A stretch of DNA of 64,000 nt from Candidatus Latescibacterota bacterium (lineage in GTDB: Bacteria > Latescibacterota > UBA2968), in assembly GCA_965222605.1 (NCBI GenBank), contig OZ244960.1:768001-832000 (forward strand). The letters are read 5' to 3'. Below the pieces are notes generated by a model. That model was not told where the DNA came from and searched no databases. It worked only from the letters and a program-made list of their open reading frames with translations. Positions 10,521-39,963 of the stretch are shown here, one piece after another. Both the position numbers and the translations under genes were made by a program. Within the stretch, counting starts at the first letter, position 1. Each line of letters begins with the position of its first letter.

Positions 10521-13500
10521 ATGACGAACATGCAATCCGTATTGTATGCCATAGCCATAAGTGTTATCCTGATCTCTGGACGTGTTGCTGCCCAAACCTC
10601 GCCACCGTCTGCTCCTGCTGCGGTGACAAACCTCGCTGCTGAGGCGGGGGATCAATACGTAACACTGAGTTGGGATAACCCGAACAACGCGAGCATCACG
10701 ACCTATCAGTATCGTCAAAGCGAAGATAGCGGCAGCACCTATTCGCCGGACTGGACAGATATTACCGGCAGTGATGAGAACACAACCAGTCACAGAGTAG
10801 AGAATCTGACAAATGACACTGAATACACCTTCGAGATACGTGCGGTGAATGCGACTGGTAATGGCGCGTCTGTTAGCGTGAGTGCCACGCCGGTCTTGCC
10901 ACCATTGACAGTGACCTGGCCTGAAGATATAAAGGGCACGGAAGACAGTTCCATCTGGACCTCATCAACATCTACTCCCCCTCAGATAACCGTATCCGGA
11001 GGACGACCATCCTATACGTATGAAATAGCCGCAGAGGGAGCACCCACAGGTCTTTCTATTGATCCATTGGGAACCCTCACAGGCACACCTACACAGAATG
11101 GGACTTTCACAACAGTAACAGTAGTTGTGCGGGATGACGCAGGTCAGAGTGTGAGTAATGACCTGAGCGTAACAATTTCTCCACCGCTGAGCATCTCACC
11201 GATAGCGTATAAAACAGTCGAACAGGGCAGCCAGATTACCCCGATCCATTTATCAGCAACCGGCGGTTGGGACCCCTATACATATTCCCTATCCGGCGCA
11301 CCTTCAGGTATCTCTTTATCAAGTGATAATCGCATCACAGGCAGACCTTCACAGGATGGGACTTTCCCAATTACCGTAACCGTGACCGATGATCACGGCA
11401 ATACTGCGGATCACAGTTTCGATATGAGTGTTTATTCGATGGAACTTGCCAAACTATTTTCTCCGATTTTGATTTTGACAGAACATCCAACGCGCAAGGA
11501 CCGCAAAGTGATCTTCCCCGAACCCGTGGAAATAATGGGTGTAACATCTGTTGACAGTCTTTGGTTTCATTTTACTGATGAGGAATCACATATATTACCT
11601 GATCTTGATCTTTCTTATCAAAACTTAAGCACATCTGAGCGTAATGATCTCATTGCTTTTTACCAGAGGCAATATCCTGATATTAATTTTTCCCAAAATA
11701 AGTTCGCCTCTATACCTGAAGTCTTAACTTTCGATACAGAACAGTCAATAAGGGGCACTTCTGTAGGAGGTGTTAGGGCACATTTTGAATATCCTGGCGT
11801 ACGTGAAGACAACGACGAAGGCACCTCTAAAAACTGGTATCACTATTATTTTTCAACTACCCATCCTAAACGTGGGGATCATCCAAATTTTCCCCATACA
11901 GCATACGTGCATATTTTTGATGAAGGAGGTCAAGTCGTAATACGGTATTATTACTTTTATCCCTTTAATGATTGGCAAAATAACCATGAGGGAGATTGGC
12001 CGCACATTAATGTTATCGTAACATCTCATGACCCAAATGTGGCAGAACTCGTTGGAATTGACTACACATTTCATGGGAATGGCCTAACCTATAACAGCAT
12101 TGGTGAAAGGGTTTTTGACCCTCAAAAAGATTTTGCACCGGCTGAAGGCGGAACTCATCCGGTTGTCTATGTAGGAGCAGGTTCCCATGGTGGCTATCCT
12201 ACGGGAGGTAATTATAAGGATCCCGGTGGTCATGCTATTGATTTGGGGCCAATAGAAGCGGGAGGTTGGGATGAAGGTATGACAAAGAGTGGCGTTGTCC
12301 TGAGCACCAGGGTTGAGGACACAAATCCTGATGTCGCACAATCTTATGATTTAATACTTCTGCCCAATCCAGATCCAGGTCAACCCAATAAGGGTTTGAC
12401 ATCAGAGATGAGTTGGTTAGGTAGCGAAGCAAGATGGGGGACACTGGAAGTTCATTCACCGGGAAGTGGGCTCCCATTTGAGAGGGCACAACAACTAAAT
12501 GATTCTCCTGTAGGGCCGTTTCATAAAGATAGCTGGGGCACTTCGGGAGCGAGTGGTTATTCCAAAAGAGAAGTTCCTTATGGAAAATTTCCCAGTCCAG
12601 ATCCCAGATCATCACCAAGAGATGATGAACACAGTAAACGATGGTTTCAACAATTCCCAATTGTGCAAAACGTTACCTGGCGTGATACAATAAAGCTGAT
12701 TGGTGATATTGTGGTCTATCCTGGCGCGACCTTGACGATTGATGCTGGCACAACGATTAAGGCTTACCCCAATCGAGATATTCATAGCATGAAGGATTCA
12801 AATCGCGTCGATATTATCAACCATGGAACGATAATCGCCAATGGAACAAGCTCTCAGCCCATTGTATTTCGTTCCGACAGTTCAACTCCTGCGTCAGGAC
12901 ACTGGTATGGCATCAGGAATCACGGCGATTTGACCATGAGCCATTTTACGATTCAACATTCAGTAGTTGGCCTGGATTTGCAAGGTACGCAGACATTGAC
13001 AGATATGACATTGTCGAACAATACCAGGAATAATACCACCCCCCTGGCGATTGCATCAATAGCAGATGTAACAGCGACTCAAAATGGGGCAATTACAGAT
13101 ATATCGGTAAGTGCATCAGGTGGTTGGGGATCTTATACGTATTCCACATCTGACTTACCTTCAGGTATCGTCTTTGATCAAGAAAGTGCTCTCATCACTG
13201 GCACACCCAAAGCAACTGGCGAATCTGACATTACAGTGACGGTACGAGATGCTGTAAATGACGAGGCATCCACAACGTTTAACTTGTCTGTTTCTGCGGC
13301 TACTCGTCCCCTGAGCATCGCGACAATAGCGGATGTGATAGCCACTCAGGATGAGGCAATTACCCCCATAAAGGTAAAAGCGTCAGGTGGTGGCGGAGCC
13401 TATACGTATTCGATAGCGAGCAACCCTGCCACAGGCTCTGGTCTTTCTATTGATTCGAATGGCCGCATTACTGGCACACCCACAGTGAGTGACGATTTCA

Positions 13501-14045
13501 AGATCACAGTAACCGTGCGAGATGCACCCGGCCGTGCTTTACCCATACAGACAAGTCGTTCTTGTTCCATGCACGTGAGACCGCGCGTGACAGTCTCGAC
13601 AATAAGCAATATAACCGTCAAGATCAGTGGCGTGCAGACGAACAGCCCGATTACCCCTATTCAGGTCTCAGCATCAGGGGGACAAACGTCTTATGCGTAT
13701 TCCCTATCCAGCAACCCTGCCACAGGTTCCGGTCTGTCCATCAATGCAACCAGTGGACAAATCACAGGCACACCAACACAGACAGGTACTTTCTCACTTA
13801 CTGTGACTGTAACCGATGATCACGGCAGGACAGGAACAGGCAGTTTCTCTATGACTGTTCGTCTGATAGCTGACTTTAATGATGATGGTGTGGTCAATGT
13901 AGCAGATCATTTACTTTTTGTGGCCGTGTTTGGTCTATCCGAAGGTGATGATGGTTTTAATGCTGATATGGATCTGGATGGTGATGGAACCATTGGCACG
14001 CCCGATTTTCTAATCTTTGTAAGTCACTTTGGCTCCTCTGCATAG
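10521..14045 (+). CDS. Large secreted protein: signal peptide, FN3, putative Ig (He_PIG-like) repeats, Vps62/NPP1-like core, beta-helix-like segment, further Ig repeats, C-terminal EF-hand/dockerin-like domain
   Basis: AGGAG RBS; VTLSW..YTFEIRAVN (FN3); repeated SGG..PYTYS..GLSI..G.ITGTPT; YYYFYPFND..NHEGDW and HPVVYVGAGSHG; DFNDDGVV..DLDGDGTIG..DF tail. Confidence 0.8.
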   Translation: MTNMQSVLYAIAISVILISGRVAAQTSPPSAPAAVTNLAAEAGDQYVTLSWDNPNNASITTYQYRQSEDSGSTYSPDWTDITGSDENTTSHRVENLTNDTEYTFEIRAVNATGNGASVSVSATPVLPPLTVTWPEDIKGTEDSSIWTSSTSTPPQITVSGGRPSYTYEIAAEGAPTGLSIDPLGTLTGTPTQNGTFTTVTVVVRDDAGQSVSNDLSVTISPPLSISPIAYKTVEQGSQITPIHLSATGGWDPYTYSLSGAPSGISLSSDNRITGRPSQDGTFPITVTVTDDHGNTADHSFDMSVYSMELAKLFSPILILTEHPTRKDRKVIFPEPVEIMGVTSVDSLWFHFTDEESHILPDLDLSYQNLSTSERNDLIAFYQRQYPDINFSQNKFASIPEVLTFDTEQSIRGTSVGGVRAHFEYPGVREDNDEGTSKNWYHYYFSTTHPKRGDHPNFPHTAYVHIFDEGGQVVIRYYYFYPFNDWQNNHEGDWPHINVIVTSHDPNVAELVGIDYTFHGNGLTYNSIGERVFDPQKDFAPAEGGTHPVVYVGAGSHGGYPTGGNYKDPGGHAIDLGPIEAGGWDEGMTKSGVVLSTRVEDTNPDVAQSYDLILLPNPDPGQPNKGLTSEMSWLGSEARWGTLEVHSPGSGLPFERAQQLNDSPVGPFHKDSWGTSGASGYSKREVPYGKFPSPDPRSSPRDDEHSKRWFQQFPIVQNVTWRDTIKLIGDIVVYPGATLTIDAGTTIKAYPNRDIHSMKDSNRVDIINHGTIIANGTSSQPIVFRSDSSTPASGHWYGIRNHGDLTMSHFTIQHSVVGLDLQGTQTLTDMTLSNNTRNNTTPLAIASIADVTATQNGAITDISVSASGGWGSYTYSTSDLPSGIVFDQESALITGTPKATGESDITVTVRDAVNDEASTTFNLSVSAATRPLSIATIADVIATQDEAITPIKVKASGGGGAYTYSIASNPATGSGLSIDSNGRITGTPTVSDDFKITVTVRDAPGRALPIQTSRSCSMHVRPRVTVSTISNITVKISGVQTNSPITPIQVSASGGQTSYAYSLSSNPATGSGLSINATSGQITGTPTQTGTFSLTVTVTDDHGRTGTGSFSMTVRLIADFNDDGVVNVADHLLFVAVFGLSEGDDGFNADMDLDGDGTIGTPDFLIFVSHFGSSA

Positions 14046-14087
14046 TTTTTTAGTGCAAGAGACAGCTTTTTATCCGGAGGAATCATC

Positions 14088-14849
14088 ATGACACATATAG
14101 CAGCAATTGTTCTAATTTTGGGACTCTGTCTGCCTCAGACTCTGTTGGCAGGCGTGGTCCTTCAAGCTGGTGAGATTGACAGCAGCAAGGTGAAAGTCGG
14201 GGCCTATGCCGAAGTCATCTATGGAACCGGTGAGAAACTATCTACGGCACGCGGCTACATTCAGGCTGTTGATGCTGAGAGTTTGACCATTAGCCAAGGT
14301 TTGGGGAAGCGGATAGCCTTTGAGCGCATACAACAACTGATTCTTGCAGAATCATCTTTCGAAATGGACAGGCTTAAAAAGACAACAGATATACTTTTTG
14401 TGAGAAAAGAGAACAAACCCAGGCGGATTGTTGGCAAGTTGGCAGGTGGTGTCCTGGGAGGGACCCTTATTGGCCTTGCGGTAGGCTCGGCCGCTGAGAA
14501 GGCTGGTGACTGTACGGGAACATTTTGTGGCGTGGGAAATTTTGTAATTGTTGGATGGATTGGCTATCTCGTCGGCGTGCCCGTCGGCATGAGCTTCTTT
14601 GATCCGTACGATCAATTTAAGTATTCATTGGCAGGCAGCCTGATAGGGGGTGCAGCAAGTCTTGTGATATTCACAGATGTAGAGTTAGCAGAAGAAAAAC
14701 TCTGGCCAGCCCTTTTTATCGGCCCCCTTGTCGGGGCTACAATTATGTCCGAGTTTTTTCGAAAACCGCCAGAGAATCGTCGTGTCTCCATCGGTCTGCT
14801 ACCCGGTCCCAAAGTCAGAGTATCCGCTGTTGCCACACTTCGATTTTGA
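14088..14849 (+). CDS. Family A secreted/outer-membrane protein, copy A1
   Basis: GGAGG RBS, MTHIAAIV signal peptide, Gly-rich helices, C-terminal VSAVATLRF. Confidence 0.8.
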   Translation: MTHIAAIVLILGLCLPQTLLAGVVLQAGEIDSSKVKVGAYAEVIYGTGEKLSTARGYIQAVDAESLTISQGLGKRIAFERIQQLILAESSFEMDRLKKTTDILFVRKENKPRRIVGKLAGGVLGGTLIGLAVGSAAEKAGDCTGTFCGVGNFVIVGWIGYLVGVPVGMSFFDPYDQFKYSLAGSLIGGAASLVIFTDVELAEEKLWPALFIGPLVGATIMSEFFRKPPENRRVSIGLLPGPKVRVSAVATLRF

Positions 14850-14955
14850 GTAGGTGACAAAAAACCTTCTGGATCGCGGCTTAAAGCATGCCGCGATGAC
14901 ACACGGGACGGCACGGGAACCGTCCCGTGCAACAACGGGCACGCGCAGTCCAACA
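14850..14955. repeat. REP-like double-hairpin element, copy 1
   Basis: ATCGCGGC..GCCGCGAT and GGGACGG..CCGTCCC stems; near-identical copy at 25420-25531. Confidence 0.7.
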
Positions 14956-15012
14956 AGTCCTCAACCCCTCTTTTTTGTCTGCGTTCACCTGCGTCATCTG
15001 CACCTGCTCAAG

Positions 15013-15749
15013 CCCTGAGTATCGCGACAATAGCGGATGTGATAGCCACTCAGGATGAGGCAATTACCCCCATAAAGGTAAAAGCGTCAGGTGGTGGCGG
15101 AGCCTATACGTATTCGATAGCGAGCAACCCTGCCACAGGCTCTGGTCTTTCTATTGATTCGAATGGCCGCATTACTGGCACACCCACAGTGAGTGACGAT
15201 TTCAAGATCACAGTAACCGTGCGAGATGCACCCGGCCGTGCTTTACCCATACAGACAAGTCGTTCTTGTTCCATGCACGTGAGACCGCGCGTGACAGTCT
15301 CGACAATAAGCAATATAACCGTCAAGATCAGTGGCGTGCAGACGAACAGCCCGATTACCCCTATTCAGGTCTCAGCATCAGGGGGACAAACGTCTTATGC
15401 GTATTCCCTATCCAGCAACCCTGCCACAGGTTCCGGTCTGTCCATCAATGCAACCAGTGGACAAATCACAGGCACACCAACACAGACAGGTACTTTCTCA
15501 CTTACTGTGACTGTAACCGATGATCACGGCAGGACAGGAACAGGCAGTTTCTCTATGACTGTTCGTCTGATAGCTGACTTTAATGATGATGGCGTGGTCG
15601 ATACATCAGATCATTTACTTTTTGTGGCCGCGTTTGGTCTATCCGAAGGTGATGATGGTTTTAATGCTGATATGGATCTGGATGGCGATGGAACCATTGG
15701 TACGCCCGATTTTCTAATCTTTGTAAGTCACTTTGAATCCACTGCATAG
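15013..15749 (+). pseudogene. Orphan 3' cassette 1 (two Ig repeats plus EF-hand/dockerin tail)
   Basis: Co-linear with 13309..14045 (offset 1704); essentially identical until the last ~160 bp; no RBS or signal peptide. Confidence 0.88.
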
Positions 15750-15792
15750 TTTTTTTGGTGCAGAAGATAGATCTCTATCAGGAGGAATCATC

Positions 15793-16605
15793 ATGACACA
15801 TATAGCAGCAATCGTAATGATTTTGGGATTCTGTCTGCCCCAGGCTCTGATAGCAGGCGTAGTCCTTGAAGCCGGTGAGATTGACAGCAGCAAGGTGAAA
15901 GTCGGTGCCTATGCCGAAGTCATCTATGGAACGGGTGAGCGGGATCAAGTCGCAGGGAAGTGGGAGAAACTGGAGGAGGCACAAGGATATATTAAAGCTG
16001 TTGATCAAGGAAGTTTGACCATTAGCCAGGGTTTGGGGAAGCGGATAGCCTTTGAGCACATACGACAACTGATCCTTGCAGAATCATCTTTCGAAATGGA
16101 CAGACTAAAAAAGACAATAGATACGCTTTTTGTGATAGAGACGACAGAGACGCCTTCTATGAGAATGGAGTACATGCCTGGGCGAATTGTTAGCAAGTTG
16201 GTCGGTGGCGTTCTTTGCGGAGGCCTTTTCGGATTTGTGGGGAGCCTGGTCACCGGGAAGGTGTATTGCAAAAAATCCGACTCTGGAGAGATATGCGGCC
16301 TCCTAGCTTTCGTGGTTGGTGGGACAATTGGCTATACAGTCGGCGTGCCCTTCGGCGTAAGCGTGCTTGATCCGCATGATCAATTCAGGTATTCATTTGC
16401 AGGCAGCCTGATAGGAGGCGCAGCAGGCATTGCCCTGACCCGCGCCGAAGAAGAGCTCTGGCCCTCCCTTCTTATCTGCCCACTTGTCGGAGCTACCATT
16501 CTGTCTGAGCTTACACGCAAACCGCCAGAGAATCGTCGTGTCTCTATTGGTCTGTTTCCCGGTCCCAAAGGCAGATTATCCGCTGTTGCCACACTTCGAT
16601 TTTGA
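15793..16605 (+). CDS. Family A secreted/outer-membrane protein, copy A2
   Basis: AGGAGG RBS, MTHIAAIV.., C-terminal LSAVATLRF. Confidence 0.8.
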   Translation: MTHIAAIVMILGFCLPQALIAGVVLEAGEIDSSKVKVGAYAEVIYGTGERDQVAGKWEKLEEAQGYIKAVDQGSLTISQGLGKRIAFEHIRQLILAESSFEMDRLKKTIDTLFVIETTETPSMRMEYMPGRIVSKLVGGVLCGGLFGFVGSLVTGKVYCKKSDSGEICGLLAFVVGGTIGYTVGVPFGVSVLDPHDQFRYSFAGSLIGGAAGIALTRAEEELWPSLLICPLVGATILSELTRKPPENRRVSIGLFPGPKGRLSAVATLRF

Positions 16606-16618
16606 GGAAGCTGCCAAT

Positions 16619-17685
16619 ACCTGTCTGTTTCTGCGGCTGCCACGGTCATGAGGATCGCATCAATACCGAATGTGATAGCGACTCAAAACGTGGCAATTAC
16701 GTCCATAAAGGTAAAAGCTTCAGGCGGTAGTGGGTCCTACACGTATTGGATAGGGCGCAACCGTCCCCCAGCGAACAACCCTCCTCAAGGTTCTGGCCTT
16801 TCTATCGATTCAAGCAGTGGCCGCATCACTGGCACACCCACAGCGAGTGAAGATTTCACGATCACAGTGGCTGTACGAGATGGGACTGGTAGCCGTTATT
16901 TACCTACACAGGTCAGTCGCTCCTTCATCATGCACGTGAGACCGCGTGTGACTGTCTCGGCAATCGGCAATATCACCGTCACGCAGAGCACCGCTATTAC
17001 TCCTATTCAGGTCTCAGCATCAGGAGGACAAACGTCTTATGCGTATTCTCTGTCCAGCAACCCTGCCGGTTCTGGTCTTTCTATCAATTCGAGCAGTGGC
17101 CAAATCACGGGCACACCAACACAGACAGGTACTTTCACACTGACTGTGACTGTTACCGATGCACACGGCAGGACAGGAACAGGCAGTTTCTCCATGACAG
17201 TAAATGCGCCCACACCCGTTTCGTCACTGACAATCGCAGAGATAAGTGATATAACGATCAAAATAAGTGGTGTGCAGACGAACAGCCCCATTACCCCTAT
17301 TCAGGTTTCAGCATCAGGAGGACAGACGCCATACACGTATTCTATGTCCAGCAATCCCGCTACAGGTTCTGGCCTGTCCATCAATGCGAGCAGTGGAGAG
17401 ATCACAGGTACACCAACACAGAGAGGCTCTTTCACACTGACTGTGACTGTCACCGATAATGCAAGTACGACCGTAACTGATAGCTTCTCAATGGCTGTCA
17501 GTCTGATAGGCGATTTTAATGATGATGGTGTGGTCGATACGTCAGATCATTTACTTCTTGTGGCCGTGTTTGGTCTAACCGAAGGTGCCGATGGTTTTAA
17601 TGCTGAGATGGATCTGAATGGCGATGGAACCATTGATGTTGCCGATTTTCTGATCTTTGTAAGTCACTTTGGTTCCTCTGCATAG
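16619..17685 (+). pseudogene. Orphan 3' cassette 2 (three Ig repeats plus tail)
   Basis: Begins mid-gene (TGTCTGTTTCTGCGGCT matches 13285 onward); diverged allele; no signal peptide. Confidence 0.82.
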
Positions 17686-17762
17686 TTTTTTTGGTGTAAG
17701 AAATAACTCATTGACTTTTGAGCGGAATCAATGAGATATATTTGTCTCAAAAGGAGAAACGC

Positions 17763-18695
17763 ATGAAAAAATTAGCTGCTGTCTTTGTAACCGCGACCCT
17801 CTTGCTTAACGCGATGGTTCCCACACTCGCGTATGCAGCCACATACCTGCAAGGCGCAGAGGTCAATGCCGGCATACTCATTCAAGATGCTTATGTTGCT
17901 GTCACCTATTACGATAGCAAGAATAAACAGACGTTAAAAAAAGGCTGGATTGATGCTATTGACGAGACTTCGTTTACCATTCGGAATGGTTTTTGGGGAA
18001 AGAAGACGATTGCTTACGATAAAGTCTTGTCACTAATTCTGAGCGAAGAAGAAACTACGCTAAGGCAAATGAATGAGGTAGATCGGTTTATTGGAAATAT
18101 GGCAGAAAGAGGAATAGAGACAGAGCAAGCCGCTATCCAACTGCTCAATCAAAAGACCATCACAACCATGCCACTTCGAGTGCGTGTATATGCCCCGTCC
18201 ATACAGAAGGGACAGATGGTTGGCAAGCTCATTAAAATGACGCAAGACACGCTGGTTATACAGGCAACACGAACTTCTCAGCAAGTACGCGCAATTTCGC
18301 CCCGCCGAATTCGTGCCCCAAAGGATATCCAACAAGGAGATATAACATTTTATCAAGTACCTATTACTTCAATCTCTCATCTCGAAGTGAGCATGGGACA
18401 GTATAGAAATACAAGCAAAGGCTTGAAAATCGGTCTTGCTACCGGACTTGCCATCTTTGCAGTTTCATACGCTTATGTAAAAAACCTCGAATCTCGTAAT
18501 CCTGATAATATCGACGGTCTAGCCATATTCATATTTGGGACTATAGCCGCTCCATCGGCCTTAGTTATCTCCACTCTGATTGGCGCAATAACAAAATCCG
18601 ACAAATGGGTTGAAGTGTCGCCCCAACGCCTCAACTTGAGCCTTGCCCCCACATCTGGCAAAGGACTTCGCGCTGCACTCACATTCAACTTTTAG
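17763..18695 (+). CDS. Family B secreted/outer-membrane protein, copy B1 (lacks the middle module)
   Basis: AAGGAG RBS, MKKLAAVFV signal peptide, C-terminal LRAALTFNF. Confidence 0.8.
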   Translation: MKKLAAVFVTATLLLNAMVPTLAYAATYLQGAEVNAGILIQDAYVAVTYYDSKNKQTLKKGWIDAIDETSFTIRNGFWGKKTIAYDKVLSLILSEEETTLRQMNEVDRFIGNMAERGIETEQAAIQLLNQKTITTMPLRVRVYAPSIQKGQMVGKLIKMTQDTLVIQATRTSQQVRAISPRRIRAPKDIQQGDITFYQVPITSISHLEVSMGQYRNTSKGLKIGLATGLAIFAVSYAYVKNLESRNPDNIDGLAIFIFGTIAAPSALVISTLIGAITKSDKWVEVSPQRLNLSLAPTSGKGLRAALTFNF

Positions 18696-18850
18696 TGATG
18701 TAAATGATTCAAATATAGAGTCGAAGTGCGTCAAAACATCTCATACCTTTTCATCCTATTCCTCAGAGCCATCCTCGAGATATCCAGAAGCGCGGATGCT
18801 TACACTTGATTCCCCTCTGTTCGTCGCAATGTCCCTTGTATTCAAGTCTC
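18696..18850. repeat. Conserved ~155-bp spacer after family B genes (also 21853-22010 and 24047-24200)
   Basis: Three similar copies, TGATG(C/T)AAATGATTCAA..GTCGAAGTGCGTCAAAAC..CTTGATTCCCCTCTG..TTGTATTCAAGT. Confidence 0.9.
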
Positions 18851-18875
18851 AGGCTCAACATCAGGAGGAATCATC

Positions 18876-19562
18876 ATGACACATATAGCAGCAATCGTAC
18901 TGCTTTTGGGTCTCTGTCTGCCCCAGGCTCTGTTGGCAGGGGAGGTCCTTCAAGTCGGTGAGATTGACAGTAGCAAGGTAAAAGTCGGTGCCTATGCTGA
19001 AGTCATCTATGGGACGGGTGAGAAACTCTCTACGGCACGCGGCTACATTCAGGCTGTTGATGCTGAGAGTTTGACTATTAGCCAGGATTTTGGGAAGCAG
19101 ATAGCTTTCGAGCGCATACAACAACTGATCCTTGCAGAATCATCTTTCGAAATAGACAGGCTTAAAGAGACAACGGATACGCTTTCTATAAAAAAAGAGA
19201 ACAAACCCAGGAGAATTGTTGGCAAGTTATTCGTCGGTGTTCTTGGAGGGGGTCTTTTCGCCCTTGCGGGGGCCTCAGTTGGAATAAATGTCGATAACTG
19301 CCCTGAGAACGAAACATACTGTCCATTAGGAAATTTTTTAATTGGTGGATGGGTTGGCTATCTCGTCGGCGTGCCCGCAGGCATGAGCTTATTTGATCCA
19401 TACGATCGATTTAAGGATTCATTGGCAGGTAGCCTGATCGGAGGTGCAACAAGTCTTGTGATATTCGCAGATGAAGAGATAGCGGAATATCTCTGGCCAG
19501 TCCTTTTTATTAGCCCCCTTGTCGGCGCAGCAATCAAGTTGGTGAATCTGACATTACAGTGA
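18876..19562 (+). pseudogene. Family A copy A3, C-terminus truncated by fusion to cassette 3
   Basis: Follows the A consensus to PLVGAAI, then switches at ~19540 to sequence matching 13217 onward; the VATLRF end is lost. Confidence 0.8.
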
Positions 19563-20689
19563 CGGTACGAGATGCTGTAAATGACGAGGCATCCACAACG
19601 TTTAACCTGTCTGTTTCTGCGGCTACTCAAGCCATGGAGATCGCGGCAATAGCGAATGTGATAGCCACTCAGAATGTGACAATTACCCCCATAAAGGTAA
19701 AAGCGTCAGGCGGTAGCGGGTCCTATACGTATTGGATAGGGAGCAACCCTCCCCCAGCGGATGCCCCTCTCCCAGAGAGCAACCCTCCCCCAGGTTCTGG
19801 TCTTTCTATCGATTCCAGCAGTGGTCGCATTACTGGCACACCCACTGCGAGTGGAGATTTCACGATCACAGTCGCAGTGCGAAATGCTGTCGTTAGTCGT
19901 GCTCCCCACACACAGGAAAGTCGCTATTTCACTATGCGCGTGAGACCGCGCGTGACAGTCTCGGCAATAGACGATATAACGGTCACACAGAACACCGCTA
20001 TTACCCCTATACAGGTCTCAGCATTGGGAGGACAAACATCTTACTCCTATTCCATGTCCAGCAACCCTGCCGGTTCTGGTCTTTCTATCAACTCAACCAG
20101 TGGACAAATCACTGGCACGCCAGCACAGGCAGGTACTTTCACACTGACCGTGACTGTGACCGATGCACACGGCAGGACAGGAACAGGCAGTTTCTCCATG
20201 ACGGTAAATGCGCCCACACCCGTTTCGTCACTGACAATCGCAGAGATAAGTGATATAACGGTCAAAATAAGTGGTGTGCAGACGAACAGCCCCATTACCC
20301 CTATTCAGGTTTCAGCATCAGGAGGACAGACGCCATACACGTATTCTATGTCCAGCAATCCCGCTACAGGTTCTGGTCTGTCCATCAATTCGAGCAGTGG
20401 ACAGATCACAGGCACGCCAACACAGAGAGGCTCTTTTACACTGACCGTGACTGTAACTGATAATGCAAGTGCGACTACAACTGATAGCTTCTCGATGGCT
20501 GTCAGTCTGATAGGGGATTTTAATGATGATGGTGTGGTCGATACGTCAGATCATTTACTTTTTGTGGCCGTGTTTGGCCTATCCGAAGGTGATGATGGTT
20601 TTAATGCCGATATGGACCTAAATGGCGATGGAACCATTGGCACGCCCGACTTTCTAATCTTTGTAAGTCACTTTGGCTCCTCTGCATAG
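19540..20689 (+). pseudogene. Orphan 3' cassette 3 (three Ig repeats plus tail)
   Basis: GAATCTGACATTACAGTGACGGTACGAGATGCTGTAAATGACGAGGC is identical to 13221 onward. Confidence 0.85.
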
Positions 20690-20766
20690 TTTTTTTACTC
20701 CAGAAGATAGCTCATTGACTTTTGAGCGGAATCAATGAGGTGCATTTGTCTCAAAAGGAGAAACAC

Positions 20767-21852
20767 ATGAAAAAATTAGCTGCTGTCTTTGTAACCGCGA
20801 CCCTCTTGCTCAATGCGATGGCTCCCATACTCGCGTATGCAGCTACATACCTGCAAGGCGCAGAGGTCAATGCCGACACACTCATTCAAGATGCTTATGT
20901 GGCAGTCACCTATTACGATAGCAAGAATAAACAGACGTTGGAAAAAGGCTGGATTGATGCTATTGACGAGACCTCGTTTACCATTCGGAGCGGCTTGTGG
21001 GGAAAGAAGACGATTGCTTATACCAAAATCTTGTCACTGGTTATGAGCGAAGAAGCAACCACGCTAAGGCAAATGAATGAGGTAAATCGGTGGTTTATTG
21101 GAAATATGGCAGAAAGAGGACCAGAGACAGAGTTGGCTGCTATCCAACTGCTCAATCAAAAGACCGTCATAATCATGCCACGCGGACAGATTGACCCGTC
21201 AGAGATCTCAAAGGGATGGTATGCCCACATCGTCTATTCATCTCAAGGTGCTACAGGAAAAACCATTAGTCGAATTGCCGATAAGGACTCAAGCCGTATC
21301 GCCCTCAAACATGGGTTTGATACCCATAACATAGCATACAGCGATATTGATACTCTCATTGTTGCCAAACACCTGCGAGAGATCGAGAGTTATCGAGAAA
21401 CCGGTGCCAAATACAATGCTCGAGTGCGTGTGTATGCCCCGTCCATTCAGAAAAGACAGATGGTTGGCAGGCTCATTAAAATGATGCAAGACACGCTCGT
21501 TATCCAAAAAGGGCGTCGCTTTTATCAAGTGCCTATTTCTTCAATCTCTACATTCGACGTCAGCCTCAAACAGTATAGAAACACAGGCAAAGGCTTGATA
21601 ATTGGGCTTGCTGCCGGGGCTAGTATGGCTATCCTGATAAATTTTCCCACGGATGAGGGACCCGATTTGCAAGGATTAGTTCAAGTATACGCCACTATGA
21701 TAATCGTACCCTCAATTGTAGTTATCTCCACTCTGATCGGTGCAATGAAGAAATCCGATAAATGGATTGAGGTGTCGCCTCAACGCCTCAACCTGAGCCT
21801 TGCACCCACATCCAGTAAAGGGCTTCGCGCCGCACTCACATTCAACTTTTAG
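20767..21852 (+). CDS. Family B secreted/outer-membrane protein, copy B2
   Basis: AAGGAG RBS, MKKLAAVFV.., C-terminal LRAALTFNF. Confidence 0.82.
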   Translation: MKKLAAVFVTATLLLNAMAPILAYAATYLQGAEVNADTLIQDAYVAVTYYDSKNKQTLEKGWIDAIDETSFTIRSGLWGKKTIAYTKILSLVMSEEATTLRQMNEVNRWFIGNMAERGPETELAAIQLLNQKTVIIMPRGQIDPSEISKGWYAHIVYSSQGATGKTISRIADKDSSRIALKHGFDTHNIAYSDIDTLIVAKHLREIESYRETGAKYNARVRVYAPSIQKRQMVGRLIKMMQDTLVIQKGRRFYQVPISSISTFDVSLKQYRNTGKGLIIGLAAGASMAILINFPTDEGPDLQGLVQVYATMIIVPSIVVISTLIGAMKKSDKWIEVSPQRLNLSLAPTSSKGLRAALTFNF

Positions 21853-22011
21853 TGATGCAAATGATTCAAAGGCATAGAGTCGAAGTGCGTCAAAACATCT
21901 CACACCTTTTCATCCTATTTCTCAGAACCATCCTCGATATACCCAGAAGCTCGGATGCCTGCACTTGATTCCCCTCTGTTCGTCGCAATACCTCTTGTAT
22001 TCAAGTGTCAA

Positions 22012-22873
22012 CATCACTGGCACACCCACAGCGAGTAGAGATTTCACGATCACAGTGGCTGTGCGAGAGGGGGCTGGTAGCCGTGATTTACCCACACAGG
22101 TCAGTCGTTCTTTCACCATGCGCGTGAGACCGCGTGTGACTGTCTCGGCAATCGGCAATATCACCGTCACACAGAACACTGCTATTACCCCTATTCAGGT
22201 TTCAGCATCGGGAGGACAAACATCTTATTCCTATTCCCTGTCCAGCAATCCTGCCAGTTCTGGTCTTTCTATCAATCAGAGCAGTGGACAGATCACTGGC
22301 ACGCCAACACAGACAGGCACTTTCACACTGACCGTGACGGTGACCGATGATCACGGCAGGACAGGAACAGGCAGTTTCTCCATGACGGTAAATGCACCTA
22401 CATCCGTTTCGCCCCTGACAATCGCAGAGATCAATGATATAGCGGTCAAGATCAGTGGTGTGCAGACCAACAGCCCGATTACGCCTATTCAGGTCTCAGC
22501 ATCAGGAGGACAAACGCCTTATGCGTATTCTATGTCCAGCAATCCCGCTACAGGTTCTGGTCTGTCCATCAATTCGAGCAGTGGACAGATTACAGGCACG
22601 CCAACACAGAGAGGCTCTTTCACACTGACCGTGACTGTAACTGATAATGCAAGTGCGACTACAACTGATAGCTTCTCGATGGCTGTCAGTCTGATAGGGG
22701 ATTTTAATGATGATGGTGTGGTCGATACGTCAGATCATTTACTTTTTGTGGCAGCGTTTGGTCTATCCGAAGGTGATGATGGTTTTAATGCTGATATGGA
22801 CCTAAATGGCGATGGAACCATTGGCACGTCCGATTTTCTGATCTTTGTAAGTCACTTTGGCTCCTCTGCATAG
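22012..22873 (+). pseudogene. Orphan 3' cassette 4
   Basis: Starts mid-Ig repeat (ITGTPTAS..); the upstream ORF-track start lies in the non-coding spacer. Confidence 0.82.
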
Positions 22874-22948
22874 TTTTTTTGTTCAGGGACAACTCATTGG
22901 CTTTTGAGCGGAACCAATGAATTAGATTTGTCCCAAAAGGAGAATCTC

Positions 22949-24046
22949 ATGAAAAAAACAGCCGCTGTCTTTGTAACTGCGACCCTCTTGCTCAACGCGA
23001 TGGCTCCCATCCTCGCGTATGCAGCCATATACCTGCAAGGTGCAGAGGTCAATGCCGACACACTTATTCAAGATGCCTACGTTGTAGTCACTTATTACGA
23101 TAGCAAGAACAAACAGAAATTGGACAAAGGCTGGATTGGTGCTATTGACGAGACTTCGTTTACCATTCGGAGCAGAGCAATTTTCGGCAAGGAGACTATT
23201 GCTTACGACAAAGTGCTGTCAGTGATCATGAGCGAGGAAGATGCCTCAAGAGGAAAGCAAATCAATGAGGTGGATCGGTTTATTCGAGAGATGGAAAAAC
23301 AAGAGGCAAGAGCGCGAGAGACAGAGCAGGCTGCTATCCAACGGCTCAATCAAAAGACCGTCACAGTCATGCCACGCGGACAGATTGACCTATCAGAGAT
23401 CATAAAGGGATGGTATGCACACATCGTCTATACGTCTCAAGGAGCTACAGGAAAAACCATTAGTCGAATTGCCTATAAGGACACCAGCCACATCGGACTC
23501 AAATATGGAACTGATACCCTTAACATAGCATACAACGATATTGATACCCTCATTGTCGCCAAACACATGCAAGAGATTGAGCGATATAGAGAAACCGGAG
23601 CCAAATACAATGCCCGAGTGCGTGTGTATGCCCCGTCCATTCAGAAGGGACAGATGGTTGGCAAGCTCATTAACATGATGCAAGACACGCTGGTTATTCA
23701 AAAAGAGCGTCGCTTTTATCGGGTGCCTGTTTCTTCAATCTCTAAATTCGACGTCAGCCTCAAACAGTATAGAAACACAGGCAAAGGCTTAAAAATTGGG
23801 CTCGCTGCTGGGACTATTATGACTATCCTGATAAATGTTCCAAACTGGGGCGGGGGCGATTTGCAAGGATTGGCTGAACTATTAGCCACTGCGATATACG
23901 TACCTCCACTTATAGTTATTCCCACTCTGATTGGCGCAATAACAAAATCCGACAAATGGGTCGAAGTGTCCCCCCAACACCTTAACCTGAGCCTTGCACC
24001 CACATCCAGCAAAGGGCTTCGCGCCGCACTCACATTCAACTTTTAG
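22949..24046 (+). CDS. Family B secreted/outer-membrane protein, copy B3
   Basis: AAGGAG RBS, MKKTAAVFV.., C-terminal LRAALTFNF. Confidence 0.82.
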   Translation: MKKTAAVFVTATLLLNAMAPILAYAAIYLQGAEVNADTLIQDAYVVVTYYDSKNKQKLDKGWIGAIDETSFTIRSRAIFGKETIAYDKVLSVIMSEEDASRGKQINEVDRFIREMEKQEARARETEQAAIQRLNQKTVTVMPRGQIDLSEIIKGWYAHIVYTSQGATGKTISRIAYKDTSHIGLKYGTDTLNIAYNDIDTLIVAKHMQEIERYRETGAKYNARVRVYAPSIQKGQMVGKLINMMQDTLVIQKERRFYRVPVSSISKFDVSLKQYRNTGKGLKIGLAAGTIMTILINVPNWGGGDLQGLAELLATAIYVPPLIVIPTLIGAITKSDKWVEVSPQHLNLSLAPTSSKGLRAALTFNF

Positions 24047-24189
24047 TGATGCAAATGATTCAAGTATAGAGTCGAAGTGCGTCAAAACAACCCATACCTT
24101 TTCATCCTATTCCTCAAAATCATCCTCGAGATACCCAGAAACGCGGATGCTTGCACTTGATTCCCCTCTGTTTGTCGCAATGCTCCTTG

Positions 24190-24577
24190 TATTCAAGTGT
24201 CAGCATCCGGAGGACAAACGCCTTATACCTATTCCCTGTCCAGCAATCCTACCACGGGCGCCGGTCTGTCCATCAATTCGAGCAGTGGGCAAATCACAGG
24301 CACGCCAACACAGAGAGGCACTTTCACACTTACCGTGACTGTAACTGATAATGCAAGTACGACTGCAACGAATAGTTTCTCCATGGCTGTCAGTCTGATA
24401 GGCGATTTTAATGGTGATGGTACGGTCAATGTATCAGATCATTTGCTTTTTGTGGCCGTGTTTGGTCTATCCGAAGGTGATGATGGTTTTAATGCCGATA
24501 TGGATTTGGATGGCGATGGAACCATTGGTACGCCCGATTTTCTAATCTTTGTAAGTCACTTTGGCTCCTCTGCATAG
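24190..24577 (+). pseudogene. Orphan 3' cassette 5 (partial Ig repeat plus tail)
   Basis: Starts at IQVSASGGQTPY; ends FVSHFGSSA*. Confidence 0.82.
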
Positions 24578-24618
24578 TTTTTTTGGTGCAGGAGACTGCT
24601 TTTTGTCAGGAGGAATAC

Positions 24619-25419
24619 ATGACACATCTAACAGCAATCGTTATGATTTTGGGTCTATGTCTGCCACAGGCTCTGTTGGCAGGGGTGGTCCTTAAAGCCG
24701 GTGAGGTTGACAGTAGCAAGATTGAAGTCGGTGCCTATGCCGAGGTCATCTATGGGACGGGTGAGCGGGATTCGGTCTCAGGAAAGTGGAAAAAACTGGA
24801 CACGGCACAAGGATATATTAAAGCCGTTGATGCAGAGAGTTTGACTATTGGACGCGGTTTTTGGAAGGAGCAGATTGCCTTTGAGAGCATACAAAAGCTG
24901 CTCCTTGCAGAGTCTGACCGCGAAATGGACAGGCTTAAAGAGACGACTGATTCGCTTTCTGAAATAGATAACAGACGACAAGGACAAAATAGAGGCGGAG
25001 GACGGATTGCCAAAAAGTTGGCAGGCGGCGTTCTTGGAGGAATCCTGTTCGGTATGGCGGGGGGCTTCGCCGGTGCGGTGATCGGTGACTGCGGAGAGAA
25101 CGTTTCATTCTGCGAATTAGAAAACTTTTTTATTGGTGGATGGTATGGCTATGTCGTCGGAGTACCCGTCGGCATGAACCGAATAGATCCACAGGATCGC
25201 TTCACATATTCATTGGCAGGTAGCCTGATCGGAGGTGCGGCAAGTCTTGTACTAACGGACTCCAAAGACGAGTTCTGGACTCTTATTATCTGCCCCCTTG
25301 TCGGCGCGGCGATCATGTCCGAATTTTTTCGAAAACCGTTAGAAGTTCGCCGTGTCTCCATCGGTCTGCTACCCGGTCCCAAAGGACGAGTATCCGCTGT
25401 TGCCACGCTTCGATTTTGA
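24619..25419 (+). CDS. Family A secreted/outer-membrane protein, copy A4
   Basis: AGGAGG RBS, MTHLTAIV.., C-terminal VSAVATLRF. Confidence 0.8.
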   Translation: MTHLTAIVMILGLCLPQALLAGVVLKAGEVDSSKIEVGAYAEVIYGTGERDSVSGKWKKLDTAQGYIKAVDAESLTIGRGFWKEQIAFESIQKLLLAESDREMDRLKETTDSLSEIDNRRQGQNRGGGRIAKKLAGGVLGGILFGMAGGFAGAVIGDCGENVSFCELENFFIGGWYGYVVGVPVGMNRIDPQDRFTYSLAGSLIGGAASLVLTDSKDEFWTLIICPLVGAAIMSEFFRKPLEVRRVSIGLLPGPKGRVSAVATLRF

Positions 25420-25531
25420 GTAGGTGACAAAAAACCTTCTGGATCGCGGCTTAAAAACACGCCGCGATGACACACGGGACGGCACGGGGACCGTCCCCTA
25501 CAACAACGGGCGAGCACGCGCAGCCCAACCA
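25420..25531. repeat. REP-like double-hairpin element, copy 2
   Basis: Near-identical to 14850-14955; marks the end of the array. Confidence 0.7.
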
Positions 25532-25558: not shown

Positions 25559-26608
25559 CTAAGATATCATGGCCGGCAAATCCGTCCGCTCGCCCCGGAC
25601 AGCTATTGCTTCTCGTAAACTGCGGGCATGGGGGGCTTCCCCGTTCAGGACCCGACCAATATCACCAGCCATCACTTCTGCCACCCGCAAGTTGGCATCA
25701 CGGGTGCGGCCCGCAATATGTGGTGTATGGACCACATTGATTCGATTTCGTAACGGATCGTCTTCTGGTACGGGTTCTCTATCATACACATCGAAAGCAC
25801 CTGCCAGCTCATTTGCAATAATCCGTTCCCTCAACGCTTCCATATCCACTGCGTACGCACGTGTGGTAATCACCACCAGCGCACCTTTTCGCAGCCGATA
25901 AATCCGCTCGCGTGACAAGATCTTCTCGGCCGATGGCGTCGGTGGAATCGTCACAACGACAATCTCACTTTCATCCACCAGGGCATCTATCTCTACACCC
26001 TCCACACCGAGCTCAACCAGCCGATCTCTGGAGATAAACGGATCATATCCCAGTACGCGTGATCCCAATGCGCTGCACCACTGTGCCATACGGCCACCAA
26101 TCTGTCCCAGCCCCATCACGCCAACAGTCTTTGAACCCAATGTGCCATTGACAAAATCGGGATTATCACAGAACTGGGCATATTCAAAATCCCACAAACG
26201 TTCGCCTGCAGCCATGCGTTTGTGCCATTGCGGAATCATACGCAGTGCATTCAACGTAAGTGCCAGTGTTATTTCAGCCACCGAAGTTGCCCACCCACGG
26301 GTCGCATCAATAATCGCAATATCGCGCTCAAACATCGGATCTACCGCCAGGCTGCGAAAGCCTCCTCCAAAAACACCACCTACAACCTTTAGCGCTGGCG
26401 CCCTTACCAAACAAGCTTCAGTCAATTGACCGCCAAACATCGCAATGGCAGAGACCCTGGAAAGGTCAGCTACTTCACCAATCGGCTGATCGCGTTCGAC
26501 GTTAACGACCTGGACTTCATCAATATCATTTAGCTGTTTCAGCAAAGCCTCTGGCACAAACGGCCACGACTTCTCCAGATTTTTGCTGCGTGCAAATAAA
26601 ATCGCCAT
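25559..26608 (-). CDS. D-isomer-specific 2-hydroxyacid dehydrogenase family protein
   Basis: SVAE, TVGVMGLGQIG, YDPF, AFDVYDREP, HTPHIAG; ATG at 26608 with GGAGGA RBS. Confidence 0.88.
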   Translation of the reverse strand: MAILFARSKNLEKSWPFVPEALLKQLNDIDEVQVVNVERDQPIGEVADLSRVSAIAMFGGQLTEACLVRAPALKVVGGVFGGGFRSLAVDPMFERDIAIIDATRGWATSVAEITLALTLNALRMIPQWHKRMAAGERLWDFEYAQFCDNPDFVNGTLGSKTVGVMGLGQIGGRMAQWCSALGSRVLGYDPFISRDRLVELGVEGVEIDALVDESEIVVVTIPPTPSAEKILSRERIYRLRKGALVVITTRAYAVDMEALRERIIANELAGAFDVYDREPVPEDDPLRNRINVVHTPHIAGRTRDANLRVAEVMAGDIGRVLNGEAPHARSLREAIAVRGERTDLPAMIS

Positions 26609-26655
26609 AACCAATCCTCCAGCAGACTCAATTGTTGATGCAGCCTGGTACATAG

Positions 26656-26701
26656 AACCAAAAAACGGCGATGGACATAAATCCACCGCCGTTTTTTGGT
26701 T
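26656..26701. terminator. Bidirectional Rho-independent terminator
   Basis: AACCAAAAAACGGCG..CGCCGTTTTTTGGTT inverted repeat. Confidence 0.8.
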
Positions 26702-26711: not shown

Positions 26712-27510
26712 TCAGAAACTAATCGCAGCACTCACTATCTGCACGGGATCGGCAAAAGAAGTGTTGAAATGCTTGAACGCATAATCAATGCGAACGCCTT
26801 TCCCGGCCTCGGTTTTGTAATCAATACCGCCGCCGAACGAATAATCTTCCAGATCGTGATTGTGCTTATACCCACCGCGCAGGGCAAAACCCATCGCAGA
26901 GGTCGCGTACTTAAACCGGTATTCCAGCCCCACAAGCGTGCGCTCGTCGAAATCTATCGGACTGTCGATCTCTGTGGCGAGATTCAGATGATGCGGCGCA
27001 GGGGTTCGGCCAGCCATCGAAATTAGATCAAAGACAAAACCCAGACGGAATGACCGGGGCAACTCGAAATGCTCGCGCTGAAACTGAGACTCCCCTCCCG
27101 GACTGAAATTCCGCACACTCATAGCAATCACCAGATTCCGGAATCCCGTATTGAAATAGGTGCCGATATCCACGGCAAAAGCATTGAGATCATTTGACTG
27201 CGTTTGCCGATTGCCAGCGACAAAGACCTCACTCGATCCCAGACCCTGATGTGCATAACGCGCCATTGCCCCCACCGAGAATCGGTCGGTAATCTGAAAA
27301 CCCCAGCCTGCGGACAGGGCGTAATTCGTCGTAGTAAATGTACCCGTCTCAGTAAATCCCTGGCTGGCTGGGTCGGGATTGATCGCAGTGCCGTTGATCT
27401 CTCCCGCATTGTGCGTGATAAAGCCCACGCCAAAGGTACCCGGTGCATTTGGAATTTTGAAAGCCGCGCCAGCAACCTGGTGATTCGTTTCAAAAATCCA
27501 TTTGGCATGC
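26712..27510 (-). pseudogene. 5'-truncated PorV/PorQ-family outer-membrane protein
   Basis: A.DIGT.FNTGF..L.IAMSVRNF, F.LP..FRLG, VGLEY, LRGGY, RIDYAF. Frame extends upstream to HAKWIFE and then meets TAG; no signal peptide. Confidence 0.65.
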
Positions 27511-27636: not shown

Positions 27637-29187
27637 ATGAAACTCTCCAACATCAACACCACCGACATCACCGACGCAATCCGCCTGGGCTGTCGAATGA
27701 TGAGCAATGTCTTCAACGCAGACGACAACGACATTCCCTTTTTCGGTTCCGAAGTCAGACCGAACCCACAATTGCGGTTTAGCGGTGTCCACTCCGAGTC
27801 GCACGTGCCCGGTCGACACCTCAACGCATTGCTCAACGCCGAAGACGCGGGCGGCATATCTGTGGATCCCGATGCAATCGAAAAACACGCCAACGCCGCG
27901 TTCTTCTCTTACAGTGGCCCGGTCGCGCTACCCCTCAACCGCATGGAGATCGATGGACCGGCCAACAGTTTCACAACCCACAACGTGCGCGAGGGTTTCC
28001 ACGCCCTGTACTCGCTGGTTAAGTACAGAAATTCCGATCGTGCGAGAGAAATTGCAGAGAACAGCATCCGAGACATATTCGAACTATTCAACCCGGACTC
28101 GGGTTGGGACTTCAATCGCCTTGAGAATGAACACGGCATAGAAGTGCGCGAAAATACCTTTATCACAGGCATCGCGCGATCAATCGGTCCCCTGGTCAAA
28201 TACTACCGCGCCACGGGCTACGGGCCTGCACTCGAACTCGCCGTAATCCTGCAGGAAAAAACGACCCGCGAATTTTTCCTCGAATCGGGTGCTTATGACC
28301 GCGAGAGCTTCGGAACGCATACCCATTCGACGACATGCGTCATGTCTTCGCTCGCACAACTCGCAGACCTTCTCGATGACGCGCGATTGCTCAATCGGGT
28401 CAAGGCATTTTACGACAATGGACTATGGGAAATTCGCGATGAAATTGGATGGGTAATCGAGAATAGTGGAGATGATGCGAGTCCCGATCGCGGAGAGATC
28501 AACAACACGGGCGATATTGTCGAAACAGCCCTGATTCTGGGCAGGAAAGGATATACTGAATACTTTGAAGACGCCGAGCGCATCACGCGATGTCACATTC
28601 TGCCTTCGCAATTGCGCGACAACAGTTTCATCGAAAACCCGCCGAATCCCAATAACATAGACGGGCTTCGCCAGGTCGCAGACCGGCATCTCGGCGGCTT
28701 TGGCTTCCCCGCACCTTATGGTCACGCGCCGCTCGACTTTGAGCGGATCAGTTTCAATACGGACATCGTAGGCGGGGGTGTCGGCTCACTCTGCGAAGTC
28801 CTGCGCGAAGCCGTACGCACCGAATCTTCGATCCACCGGGTGAATCTCCATTTCGATCTCGAAACCGACCATATCAAGGTCGAGTCACCCTACACAAATG
28901 ACTGCCTGCGAATCACCGTCAAATCCCCTGGCCCTCTGTATGTCCGCATCCCAACCTGGGTCGATCCGTCCGATATCGCCATAGCCGACCGCCTCACCTG
29001 CTCCAATGGCTATCTCTTAATCTCCGAACCCCAGATCAACACCCCCATCGAAATACGCTTCCCTCTCACCGAGCGCGAAATCGTATTGAAACACCGCACG
29101 CGGGACATCAGAGTGCGCCTGAAAGGAGACTCAGTGCTCGCAATGGAAAATCACGACGCTGATCTGACTTATTTCGATCCTCTATAA
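27637..29187 (+). CDS. Conserved hypothetical protein, GH127-like (alpha/alpha barrel plus beta-sandwich)
   Basis: 516 aa clean ORF; HTHS, E..N.GD, C-terminal LYVRIPTW..IEIRFPL pattern. Family call is tentative. Confidence 0.5.
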   Translation: MKLSNINTTDITDAIRLGCRMMSNVFNADDNDIPFFGSEVRPNPQLRFSGVHSESHVPGRHLNALLNAEDAGGISVDPDAIEKHANAAFFSYSGPVALPLNRMEIDGPANSFTTHNVREGFHALYSLVKYRNSDRAREIAENSIRDIFELFNPDSGWDFNRLENEHGIEVRENTFITGIARSIGPLVKYYRATGYGPALELAVILQEKTTREFFLESGAYDRESFGTHTHSTTCVMSSLAQLADLLDDARLLNRVKAFYDNGLWEIRDEIGWVIENSGDDASPDRGEINNTGDIVETALILGRKGYTEYFEDAERITRCHILPSQLRDNSFIENPPNPNNIDGLRQVADRHLGGFGFPAPYGHAPLDFERISFNTDIVGGGVGSLCEVLREAVRTESSIHRVNLHFDLETDHIKVESPYTNDCLRITVKSPGPLYVRIPTWVDPSDIAIADRLTCSNGYLLISEPQINTPIEIRFPLTEREIVLKHRTRDIRVRLKGDSVLAMENHDADLTYFDPL

Positions 29188-30426: not shown

Positions 30427-30457
30427 TGATCTAATCCTCAGTCTTTCGTAGCCTAAA

Positions 30458-31276: not shown

Positions 31277-31277
31277 C

Positions 31278-36523: not shown

Positions 36524-36571
36524 GTTAAAACCTGTTCACTGGCGAGATCGAGTAGGAGCATTCCCGCCAAC

Positions 36572-39957: not shown

Positions 39958-39963
39958 CGCTTA

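Follow-up and report, generated by a model that had tools for sequence, protein, structure and literature searches.

Within a 64,000-nt stretch of a Latescibacterota genome (the window, G000:C1:768001-832000; the source genome G000 is a single closed contig of 6,338,376 bases), positions 10521-25419 of the + strand carry a full-length gene, here called Big, together with five orphan copies of its 3´ end, which we call tails (t1 to t5), and seven genes belonging to two partner families, A and B. The order, as seen in the list of open reading frames (ORFs), in the direct-repeat families and by self-blastn, is Big-A1-t1-A2-t2-B1-A3-t3-B2-t4-B3-t5-A4, which is exactly the cassette order given in an earlier description made from the letters alone (below, the sequence-only reading). 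As set out below, this array of orphan modules was probably built by recombination.

Big (10521..14045) encodes 1174 aa from the ATG at 10521, ahead of which lies the Shine-Dalgarno (SD) sequence TAAGGAGAG. The first partner, A1 (14088..14849, 253 aa, SD CAGGAGGAATCATC and ATG), is followed directly by an element of two hairpin modules resembling repetitive extragenic palindromic (REP) sequences (14850..14940) and then by tail 1 (14997..15749), a copy of Big nt 13293-14045 that comprises two He_PIG repeats and a dockerin and has no SD. A2 (15793..16605, with SD and ATG) precedes tail 2 (16619..17685), which begins 13 nt past the A2 stop and has three He_PIG repeats and a dockerin. B1 (17763..18695, SD AAAAGGAGAAAC and ATG) encodes a signal peptide, SH3-like repeats, two hydrophobic helices and a C-terminus ending in ...ALTFNF. 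A3 (18876..19562) is truncated at its 3´ end; it ceases to resemble the other A genes near 19534, at which point the orphan copy tail 3 (19540..20689) starts, with at most a few bases of microhomology at the junction. B2 (20767..21852) and B3 (22949..24046), each differing by 1 nt from its orthologue in the related genome G019, flank tail 4 (21999..22873), an orphan 3´ copy that again has no SD. The shortest tail, tail 5 (24190..24577), retains part of the last He_PIG repeat plus the dockerin and, like the last partner A4 (24619..25419, A family, SD plus ATG), is missing from G019. A second REP-like two-hairpin element (25420..25510) lies 3´ of A4 at the end of the array. Five of these partner starts were corrected to internal ATGs (15793, 17763, 20767, 22949 and 24619). 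By blastn-short the REP-like element has at least 60 partial or full copies genome-wide; contigs of public sequencing runs break and diverge at the copies after A1 and A4.

All five tails reach the common C-terminal ...FVSHF(G/E)S(S/T)A and its stop in frame, and all five contain He_PIG and Dockerin_1 by Pfam. The dockerin matches (PF00404) of tails 2 to 5 score 23.9-30.9 bits, above the cut-off of 22.9, while those of tail 1 (21.3) and Big (17.8) fall below it. In Big coordinates, self-blastn places the tail starts at about 13282 for tails 1 and 2, 13217 for tail 3, 13453 for tail 4 and 13658 for tail 5. The sequence-only reading was thus right that the tails share one stop; its claim that each starts at a different point of Big fails for tails 1 and 2, whose starts coincide. 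A GGAG-type SD, an ATG and a hydrophobic, signal-like N-terminus are present in Big and in 7/7 partners and in none of the five tails, in agreement with its statement that the tails lack a ribosome binding site and a signal peptide. Judged by these missing signals, the tails are presumably not translated. Its contrast between a conserved tail and a variable partner also stands: the tails are more alike than the partners, with a synonymous divergence (dS) of 0.04 for Big/t1 vs 0.47 for A1/A2, and of 0.12 for t3/t4 vs 0.32 for B2/B3. The ratio of nonsynonymous to synonymous divergence (dN/dS) for A1/A2 is 0.37.

Related arrays and sequence exchange

The same genome carries a second array 2.7 Mb away (G000:C1:3455952-3474900, loci L035/L036). 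It is headed by a Big paralogue (1964 aa, 60% identical, with extra FN3 repeats), after which the order is A-t-A-t-A'-t'-A-t-A-t-B-t-B-t-A-t-B', giving eight tails and nine partner genes or fragments. An SD-preceded start was found in 8/8 partners and was absent from 7/8 tails. This array is partly decayed: one tail is frameshifted and one very short, one A gene is internally deleted and one B is a fragment. A specific junction, in which sequence corresponding to Big residue 935 begins 13-21 nt past the stop of an A gene, occurs at t1 and t2 of the first array and at the first, second and fourth tails of the second (2t1, 2t2 and 2t4). One ancestral junction is therefore repeated in both arrays, and the tail-plus-A unit spread by duplication or unequal crossing-over.

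A-like genes were found in 26 of the 41 genomes searched (G000 included), with 25 in G000, 18 in G014, 16 in G026 and 1-4 in most others, and the 25 related loci that we compared all come from Latescibacterota contigs. Three of these loci (L037, L041 and L047) are a plain Big plus one partner, as is also found in G007; in L038, A, B and a piece of a tail come after a split Big, and at least three tails occur in L039 only. G014 has its own array, and no flank homology of at least 400 nt was detected between it and the second G000 array. Tails that are frameshifted, internally deleted or very short occur in the other arrays. Cassette number and order differ among relatives.

The most informative comparison is with G019, a congeneric, independent closed genome whose flanks are 93% identical to those of G000 over 10.5 kb. 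The order there is Big'(1283 aa)-B2-t4-B3, and next to it lies a dehydrogenase gene with an internal deletion. G019 positions 12090-16716 match window positions 19540-24163 at 96% (blastn, 4.6 kb), and the full-length G019 gene runs colinearly into the sequence of G000 tail 3, which identifies tail 3 as the displaced end of a G019-type allele. The t3-B2-t4-B3 stretch of G000 is reproduced with the same junctions in G019; relative to G019, G000 has an extra block (Big-3'/A1/t1/A2/t2/B1/A3') before tail 3, and t5-A4 behind. Further variants were present in contigs assembled from two public metagenome runs of other samples, X3 and X6, which report differences among strains and not rates. One X3 contig joins Big to tail 3 (13213->19537, with 104 letters on the shorter side), the joint seen in G019, and other X3 contigs have lost one unit through recombination between A1 and A2 (14814->16577) or between t3 and t4 (19977->22445). 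In both runs we also found an empty site from which the whole 15.5 kb is missing (10005->25543).

Ongoing exchange is also evident between the copies. Big and tail 1 share a 100% identical run of 572 nt inside 753 nt with 18 differences, a run reached in 0/20000 shuffles. The longest exact tract in the second array, between its Big paralogue and its third tail, is 183 nt, and the longest between the two arrays is 73 nt. Tail 3 is a patchwork, with 97-99% identity to tail 2 over 20140-20320 and 98-100% identity to tail 4 over 20380-20500. Between G000 and G019, dS is 0.12-0.14 for flanking genes, 0 for B2 and B3 (~99.9% identical), 0.24 for t4 and 0.22 for t3. Compared in 50-nt windows, the two genomes are virtually identical over 20382-22180 and 22929-24129 and show differences of 8-13% in the Ig-repeat (immunoglobulin-like) parts of t3 and t4; the longest run without any difference measures 1126 nt, a length reached in 0/3000 shuffles. 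Three of the four ends of these B2 and B3 tracts lie in tails or within ~55 nt of a tail stop, and the fourth lies 61 nt before tail 5, at the G019 deletion joint. Tail 4 of G000 is 94% identical to tail 3 of both genomes and 91% identical to its positional orthologue in G019. Thus three of the four ends of the recombination tracts that carry partners fall within tails or close to them, and paralogous tails overwrite one another. Modules have been gained, lost and exchanged among these genomes, and tracts of gene conversion connect the copies with each other and with the expressed gene.

The sequence-only reading had proposed that the conserved tail is a homology anchor for capturing or swapping partners in a layout that it took to be undescribed. 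The tract ends and the t3-t4, A1-A2 and Big-t3 joints bear out the tails as recombination tracts that move or remove partners; the novelty of the layout does not hold, as discussed below. It had also reported that no recombinase, transposase or reverse transcriptase lies in the window, and the 43 window ORFs scanned with NCBIfam (E<=1e-10), as well as the 27 of them rescanned with Pfam (E<=1e-6), contained none. A diversity-generating retroelement was considered and rejected: the substitution spectrum is an ordinary one rather than adenine-specific, with 480 transitions and 233 transversions (C/T 264, A/G 216) and 411/713 differences at third codon positions, and these ORF scans gave no reverse transcriptase.

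The large protein and its partners

Big is predicted to be an adhesin-like, multidomain exoprotein exported by the Sec pathway. Its layout is a signal peptide, fn3, He_PIG Ig repeats, a conserved central domain, a beta-helix-like segment, three further He_PIG repeats and a C-terminal dockerin-type domain, with Pfam matches to He_PIG (E 6e-49), to fn3 and, below the cut-off as noted, to Dockerin_1. An AlphaFold2 (AF2) model has a mean confidence score (pLDDT) of 69, with confident FN3, Ig domains and dockerin, and a fold search with the whole model returned Ig, cadherin and FN3 chains only. The domain that type IX secretion cargo carries (Por secretion tail, C-terminal domain) was not found in Big, whose NCBIfam matches at E<=0.01 are limited to tand_rpt_95 and a fragment of an MXYO-CTERM family. 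Of 140 tblastn matches, 79 were located elsewhere than in the two arrays, and nearly all of these 79 aligned with the final 55-120 residues.

The central domain of Big (~400 residues, approximately 320-730) has 93 homologues among metagenomic proteins. Over 34 homologues, many His, Glu, Asp and Ser residues are invariant, for example H502 E503 G504 D505 W506 and G567 S568 H569 (numbered on the 1187-aa ORF with a GTG start at 10482). The domain has no Pfam match at E<=10, and its best PDB sequence match is at E 0.64. Its HEGDW motif, which we took to resemble Vps62/DUF946, received no support from a hidden Markov model search. A hypervariable patch at 11576-11870 within this domain has 47-61 mismatches per 100 columns vs G019; for most of the gene the figure is 3-20.

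In the partner A1, a signal-like N-terminus and a small N-domain precede four hydrophobic, glycine-rich helices, and the protein closes with a beta-hairpin whose last residues are ...ATLRF. Its AF2 model is poor (pLDDT 48.7; the four helices at 111-223 at ~60-78, residues 1-109 <50), and a fold search with it found generic helical membrane bundles only (Z<=7.5). None of the seven partners has a Pfam family over its cut-off at E<=0.01, B3 giving two weak sub-threshold matches. NCBIfam, PADLOC and a PDB profile search had nothing for either family, and the ESM Atlas placed A1 and B2 in unnamed clusters only. The A family has 175 relatives at E<=0.001, and none of the 120 listed carries a Pfam domain. 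An SH3-like N-domain is common to A and B (A1 residues 7-96 vs B genes, 28-31% identity), the B proteins have weak RimP-SH3 matches, and both families end in an alternating hydrophobic pattern with a final Phe (...VSAVATLRF in A, ...LRAALTFNF in B), which may correspond to an outer-membrane beta-signal. A short A' form, in which a signal peptide is fused to residues 92-253 and the N-domain is missing, recurs in many genomes, including the G014 locus L025/L039, as well as in metagenome proteins; it is more likely a true isoform than the product of a single deletion. The first partner behind Big varies, being an A gene in G000, G007, G017 and G014, A' in L047 and a B gene in G019. The idea that dockerins and partners form matched pairs was dropped, as the dockerin sequences do not group according to partner family.

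Genes resembling both families also occur apart from the arrays. At 4.58-4.61 Mb (G000:C1:4582000-4610000, L033/L034) there are genes for three WD40-repeat proteins of 701, 1614 and 1016 aa, with a dockerin-like stretch that is C-terminal in two and N-terminal in the 701-aa protein. They adjoin diverged A/B-like genes alternating with PorV/PorQ-like outer-membrane genes; the locus is conserved genus-wide, and the alternation of A/B-like with PorV/PorQ-like genes is also found in G026, from another family of the order. Because A and B are repeatedly linked to dockerin-tagged exoproteins and to PorV/PorQ-like genes, we infer that they are envelope proteins serving dockerin-tagged surface proteins. 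The tails and Big resemble cellulosomal dockerin-cohesin systems in their C-terminal two-repeat dockerin type I, with PF00404 at or above the cut-off in 4/5 tails. Unlike those systems, the adjoining partners have no cohesin (A1 has no Pfam match at E<=10 and B2 no cohesin match) and there is no glycoside hydrolase; four weak matches to the cohesin family PF00963 lie elsewhere in the genome.

Origin of the array

We favor, as the likely origin of this locus, the stacking of orphan modules by recombination. The basic unit, which occurs by itself in relatives, would be a two-gene operon encoding a Sec-exported, adhesin-like protein with Ig repeats and a dockerin end, followed by a membrane partner, A or B. 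Homologous and illegitimate recombination would have stacked modules, each a Big 3´ end plus a partner, behind the expressed copy. When a diverged allele arrives, its crossover with the 5´ or the middle portion of Big, combined with an illegitimate junction on the right, could displace the resident end, with the junction between the truncated A3 and tail 3 as a candidate example. Unequal crossing-over or tandem duplication would then multiply the tail-plus-partner units, and deletions would also occur. The tails would be scars and yet tracts of homology, with patches swapped by gene conversion among them and with the expressed gene, and crossovers in them could delete, reload or exchange the intervening partners, both within and between genomes. 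Expression of the partners by read-through is predicted, and the order of events given here is similarly conjectural. As each partner gene has retained signals for its own translation, the cell probably obtains a number of partner variants from the array alongside one big protein.

Arrays of this design are known from polymorphic-toxin loci. In the orphan cdiA-CT/cdiI modules of contact-dependent growth inhibition (CDI) systems, a fragment that has no translation signals and is still homologous to the main gene precedes a small gene that can be expressed (PMC3150448). There, read-through transcription provides for expression of the orphan immunity genes, a deletion in one strain "loads" an orphan onto cdiA, the homology of a module spans the interval between two successive conserved boundaries, and what is an orphan in one strain forms the end of the main gene in another. 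Likewise, PMC2935791 describes a "C-terminal displacement" of rhs genes that yields arrays of dissociated tips. The layout that the sequence-only reading considered undescribed is therefore matched by orphan cdiA-CT/cdiI and rhs-tip arrays (PMC3150448, PMC2935791). As in those arrays, the main gene in G000 is followed on the same strand by 5´-truncated fragments without translation signals, each ahead of an intact small gene; an orphan (tail 3) is the main gene end in G019 and at the X3 contig joint; and module exchange between strains is bounded in a conserved segment and needs no dedicated recombinase. Unlike in CDI and Rhs loci, the conserved homology extends across the Ig repeats and the dockerin as far as the stop, and what varies is a gene of its own downstream, from only two families of multi-helix membrane proteins. 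A variable toxin tip, a boundary of the VENN or PxxxxDPxGL type and repeats of the Rhs/YD or haemagglutinin type are all missing, and Pfam, NCBIfam and PADLOC gave no toxin or Rhs family. Type V (CdiB), type VI and type VII secretion systems were not seen among the window ORFs scanned, no genome-wide search having been made. The locus works like a CDI/Rhs orphan array and lies outside those families. An array of this particular kind was not found described in the literature searched, with subscription journals outside the coverage; a search on silent cassettes, adhesins and tandem arrays gave only known pathogen systems, and one on dockerins in this phylum gave unrelated work.

Several observations weigh against stacking by recombination. 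The open frame is kept in 5/5 tails of the first array, and dN/dS among tails is low (median ~0.26 over 78 pairs; 0.10 for tail 4 of G000 vs G019), which could mean that the tails are themselves selected, as silent donors or as translated products. We prefer another reading, under which a low value is expected without translation: differences imported by recombination arose in copies that belonged to working genes. Big shows no sharp left crossover: its divergence from G019 climbs gradually from ~nt 10900, so that the displacement is not cleanly delimited. The junctions specific to G000 are taken from its assembly. Finally, read-through into the distal cassettes is unproven, given the REP-like hairpin element after A1 and a promoter and terminator scan at chance level (22 found vs 22.8 expected; 11 vs 12.5).

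The retained frames and low dN/dS of the tails raise the alternative of programmed surface variation, in which the tails would be silent donors maintained for varying the Ig-dockerin end of Big, with the partner co-switched, in the manner of pilS, vls and vlhA. The silent-cassette loci pilS and vlhA have one expression site and truncated silent copies; the vls system of Borrelia vlsE is described in PMC11499132. Our locus resembles Neisseria pilE/pilS, Borrelia vlsE and Mycoplasma vlhA/MgPa in combining one expression site with tandem, promoterless, 5´-truncated copies (~80-90% identity) and segmental conversion tracts: one copy has an SD and signal peptide, five silent copies (eight in the second array) follow on the same strand, the expressed gene at both loci has its longest exact tract (572 and 183 nt) with a tail of its own array, and between G000 and G019 no stretch varies more than the Ig part of the tails. 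Unlike in silent-cassette loci, however, the cassettes are interleaved with intact, translatable partners, and the arrays are sporadic and partly decayed. Only 1/25 related loci has at least three tails, three are the plain pair, and broken tails occur in other arrays. The dockerin end hardly varies, and no accessory recombination signal or gene was seen in the window ORF scans. The exchange itself is documented as variants among strains, and the direction of transfer cannot be read from one genome. On balance we think programmed variation improbable.

If instead the likeness to CDI and Rhs loci extended to function, Big would be a secreted effector with an active central domain and A and B its orphan immunity proteins. 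This would fit the shared orphan-module layout, the partners as small multi-helix membrane proteins with their own translation signals, and the invariant His, Glu, Asp and Ser residues of the central domain. The orphan fragments, however, lack that domain and consist of Ig repeats and the conserved dockerin, so that module and "immunity" gene are unmatched; the searches for toxin families, whether Rhs/YD, VENN or those of PADLOC and NCBIfam, gave nothing; and the company that A/B-like genes keep elsewhere, WD40-dockerin and PorV/PorQ-like genes, fits envelope biogenesis better. We strongly doubt a disguised toxin-immunity system. A head-to-tail stitching of alleles from co-existing strains by the assembler is more improbable again. 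The assembly is of metagenome type with 5.4% estimated contamination, related alleles co-occur in the same runs and the repeats are long enough to mislead assemblers. Against this, the genome is a single closed contig with an array of the same design 2.7 Mb away, t3-B2-t4-B3 recurs with the same junctions in the independently closed G019, G014 has an array of its own, and the joint between A stop and Big residue 935 is specific and repeated in both arrays.

Orphan-module arrays are usually taken as a hallmark of toxin and immunity genes, and the same architecture here carries a conserved Ig-dockerin end and a membrane partner. If the array was indeed stacked by recombination as we suggest, C-terminal displacement would be a general route of diversification for large surface-protein operons, and an orphan fragment plus a small gene would be no proof of toxin and immunity by layout alone. 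The A and B families also offer a lead to how the many non-cellulosomal dockerins of uncultured bacteria are handled. A further-reaching possibility, which we regard as unlikely, is that the arrays are a selected, toxin-free counterpart of polymorphic-toxin loci: silent Ig-dockerin tails would be kept as donor and anchor cassettes that, through conversion and crossover, re-tip Big and change the first partner, with all partners expressed by read-through, and would vary surface identity or attachment in an uncultured, probably host-associated lineage. That most relatives have Big plus one partner, and that other arrays are decayed, weighs against such a selected repertoire.

Genes beside the array

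On the - strand, the array is adjoined by a gene resembling 2-hydroxyacid and phosphoglycerate dehydrogenases (25559-26686), an 80% aa paralogue of the copy beside the 4.6-Mb WD40 locus. The latter copy is present in every genome of the genus searched, and the copy at the array is the one internally deleted in G019. A PorV/PorQ-family gene (26712-27428, - strand; NCBIfam E 8e-25, just under the cut-off) lies 1.3 kb downstream of the array and appears to be ~108-135 N-terminal codons short compared with its 373-aa G019 orthologue. Farther downstream, 29182-45111 is a defence-type island with a type I restriction-modification system (hsdR, hsdS-like and hsdM), Schlafen/AlbA_2, an AAA_15/AbiEii-like ATPase, DUF4062 and a YgjP-like gene. 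Upstream of Big there is a HepT-like gene (6168-6629), and two DUF6785/DUF6784 paralogues, at 4164-6116 and 47560-49491 (-), lie 43 kb apart in the window.

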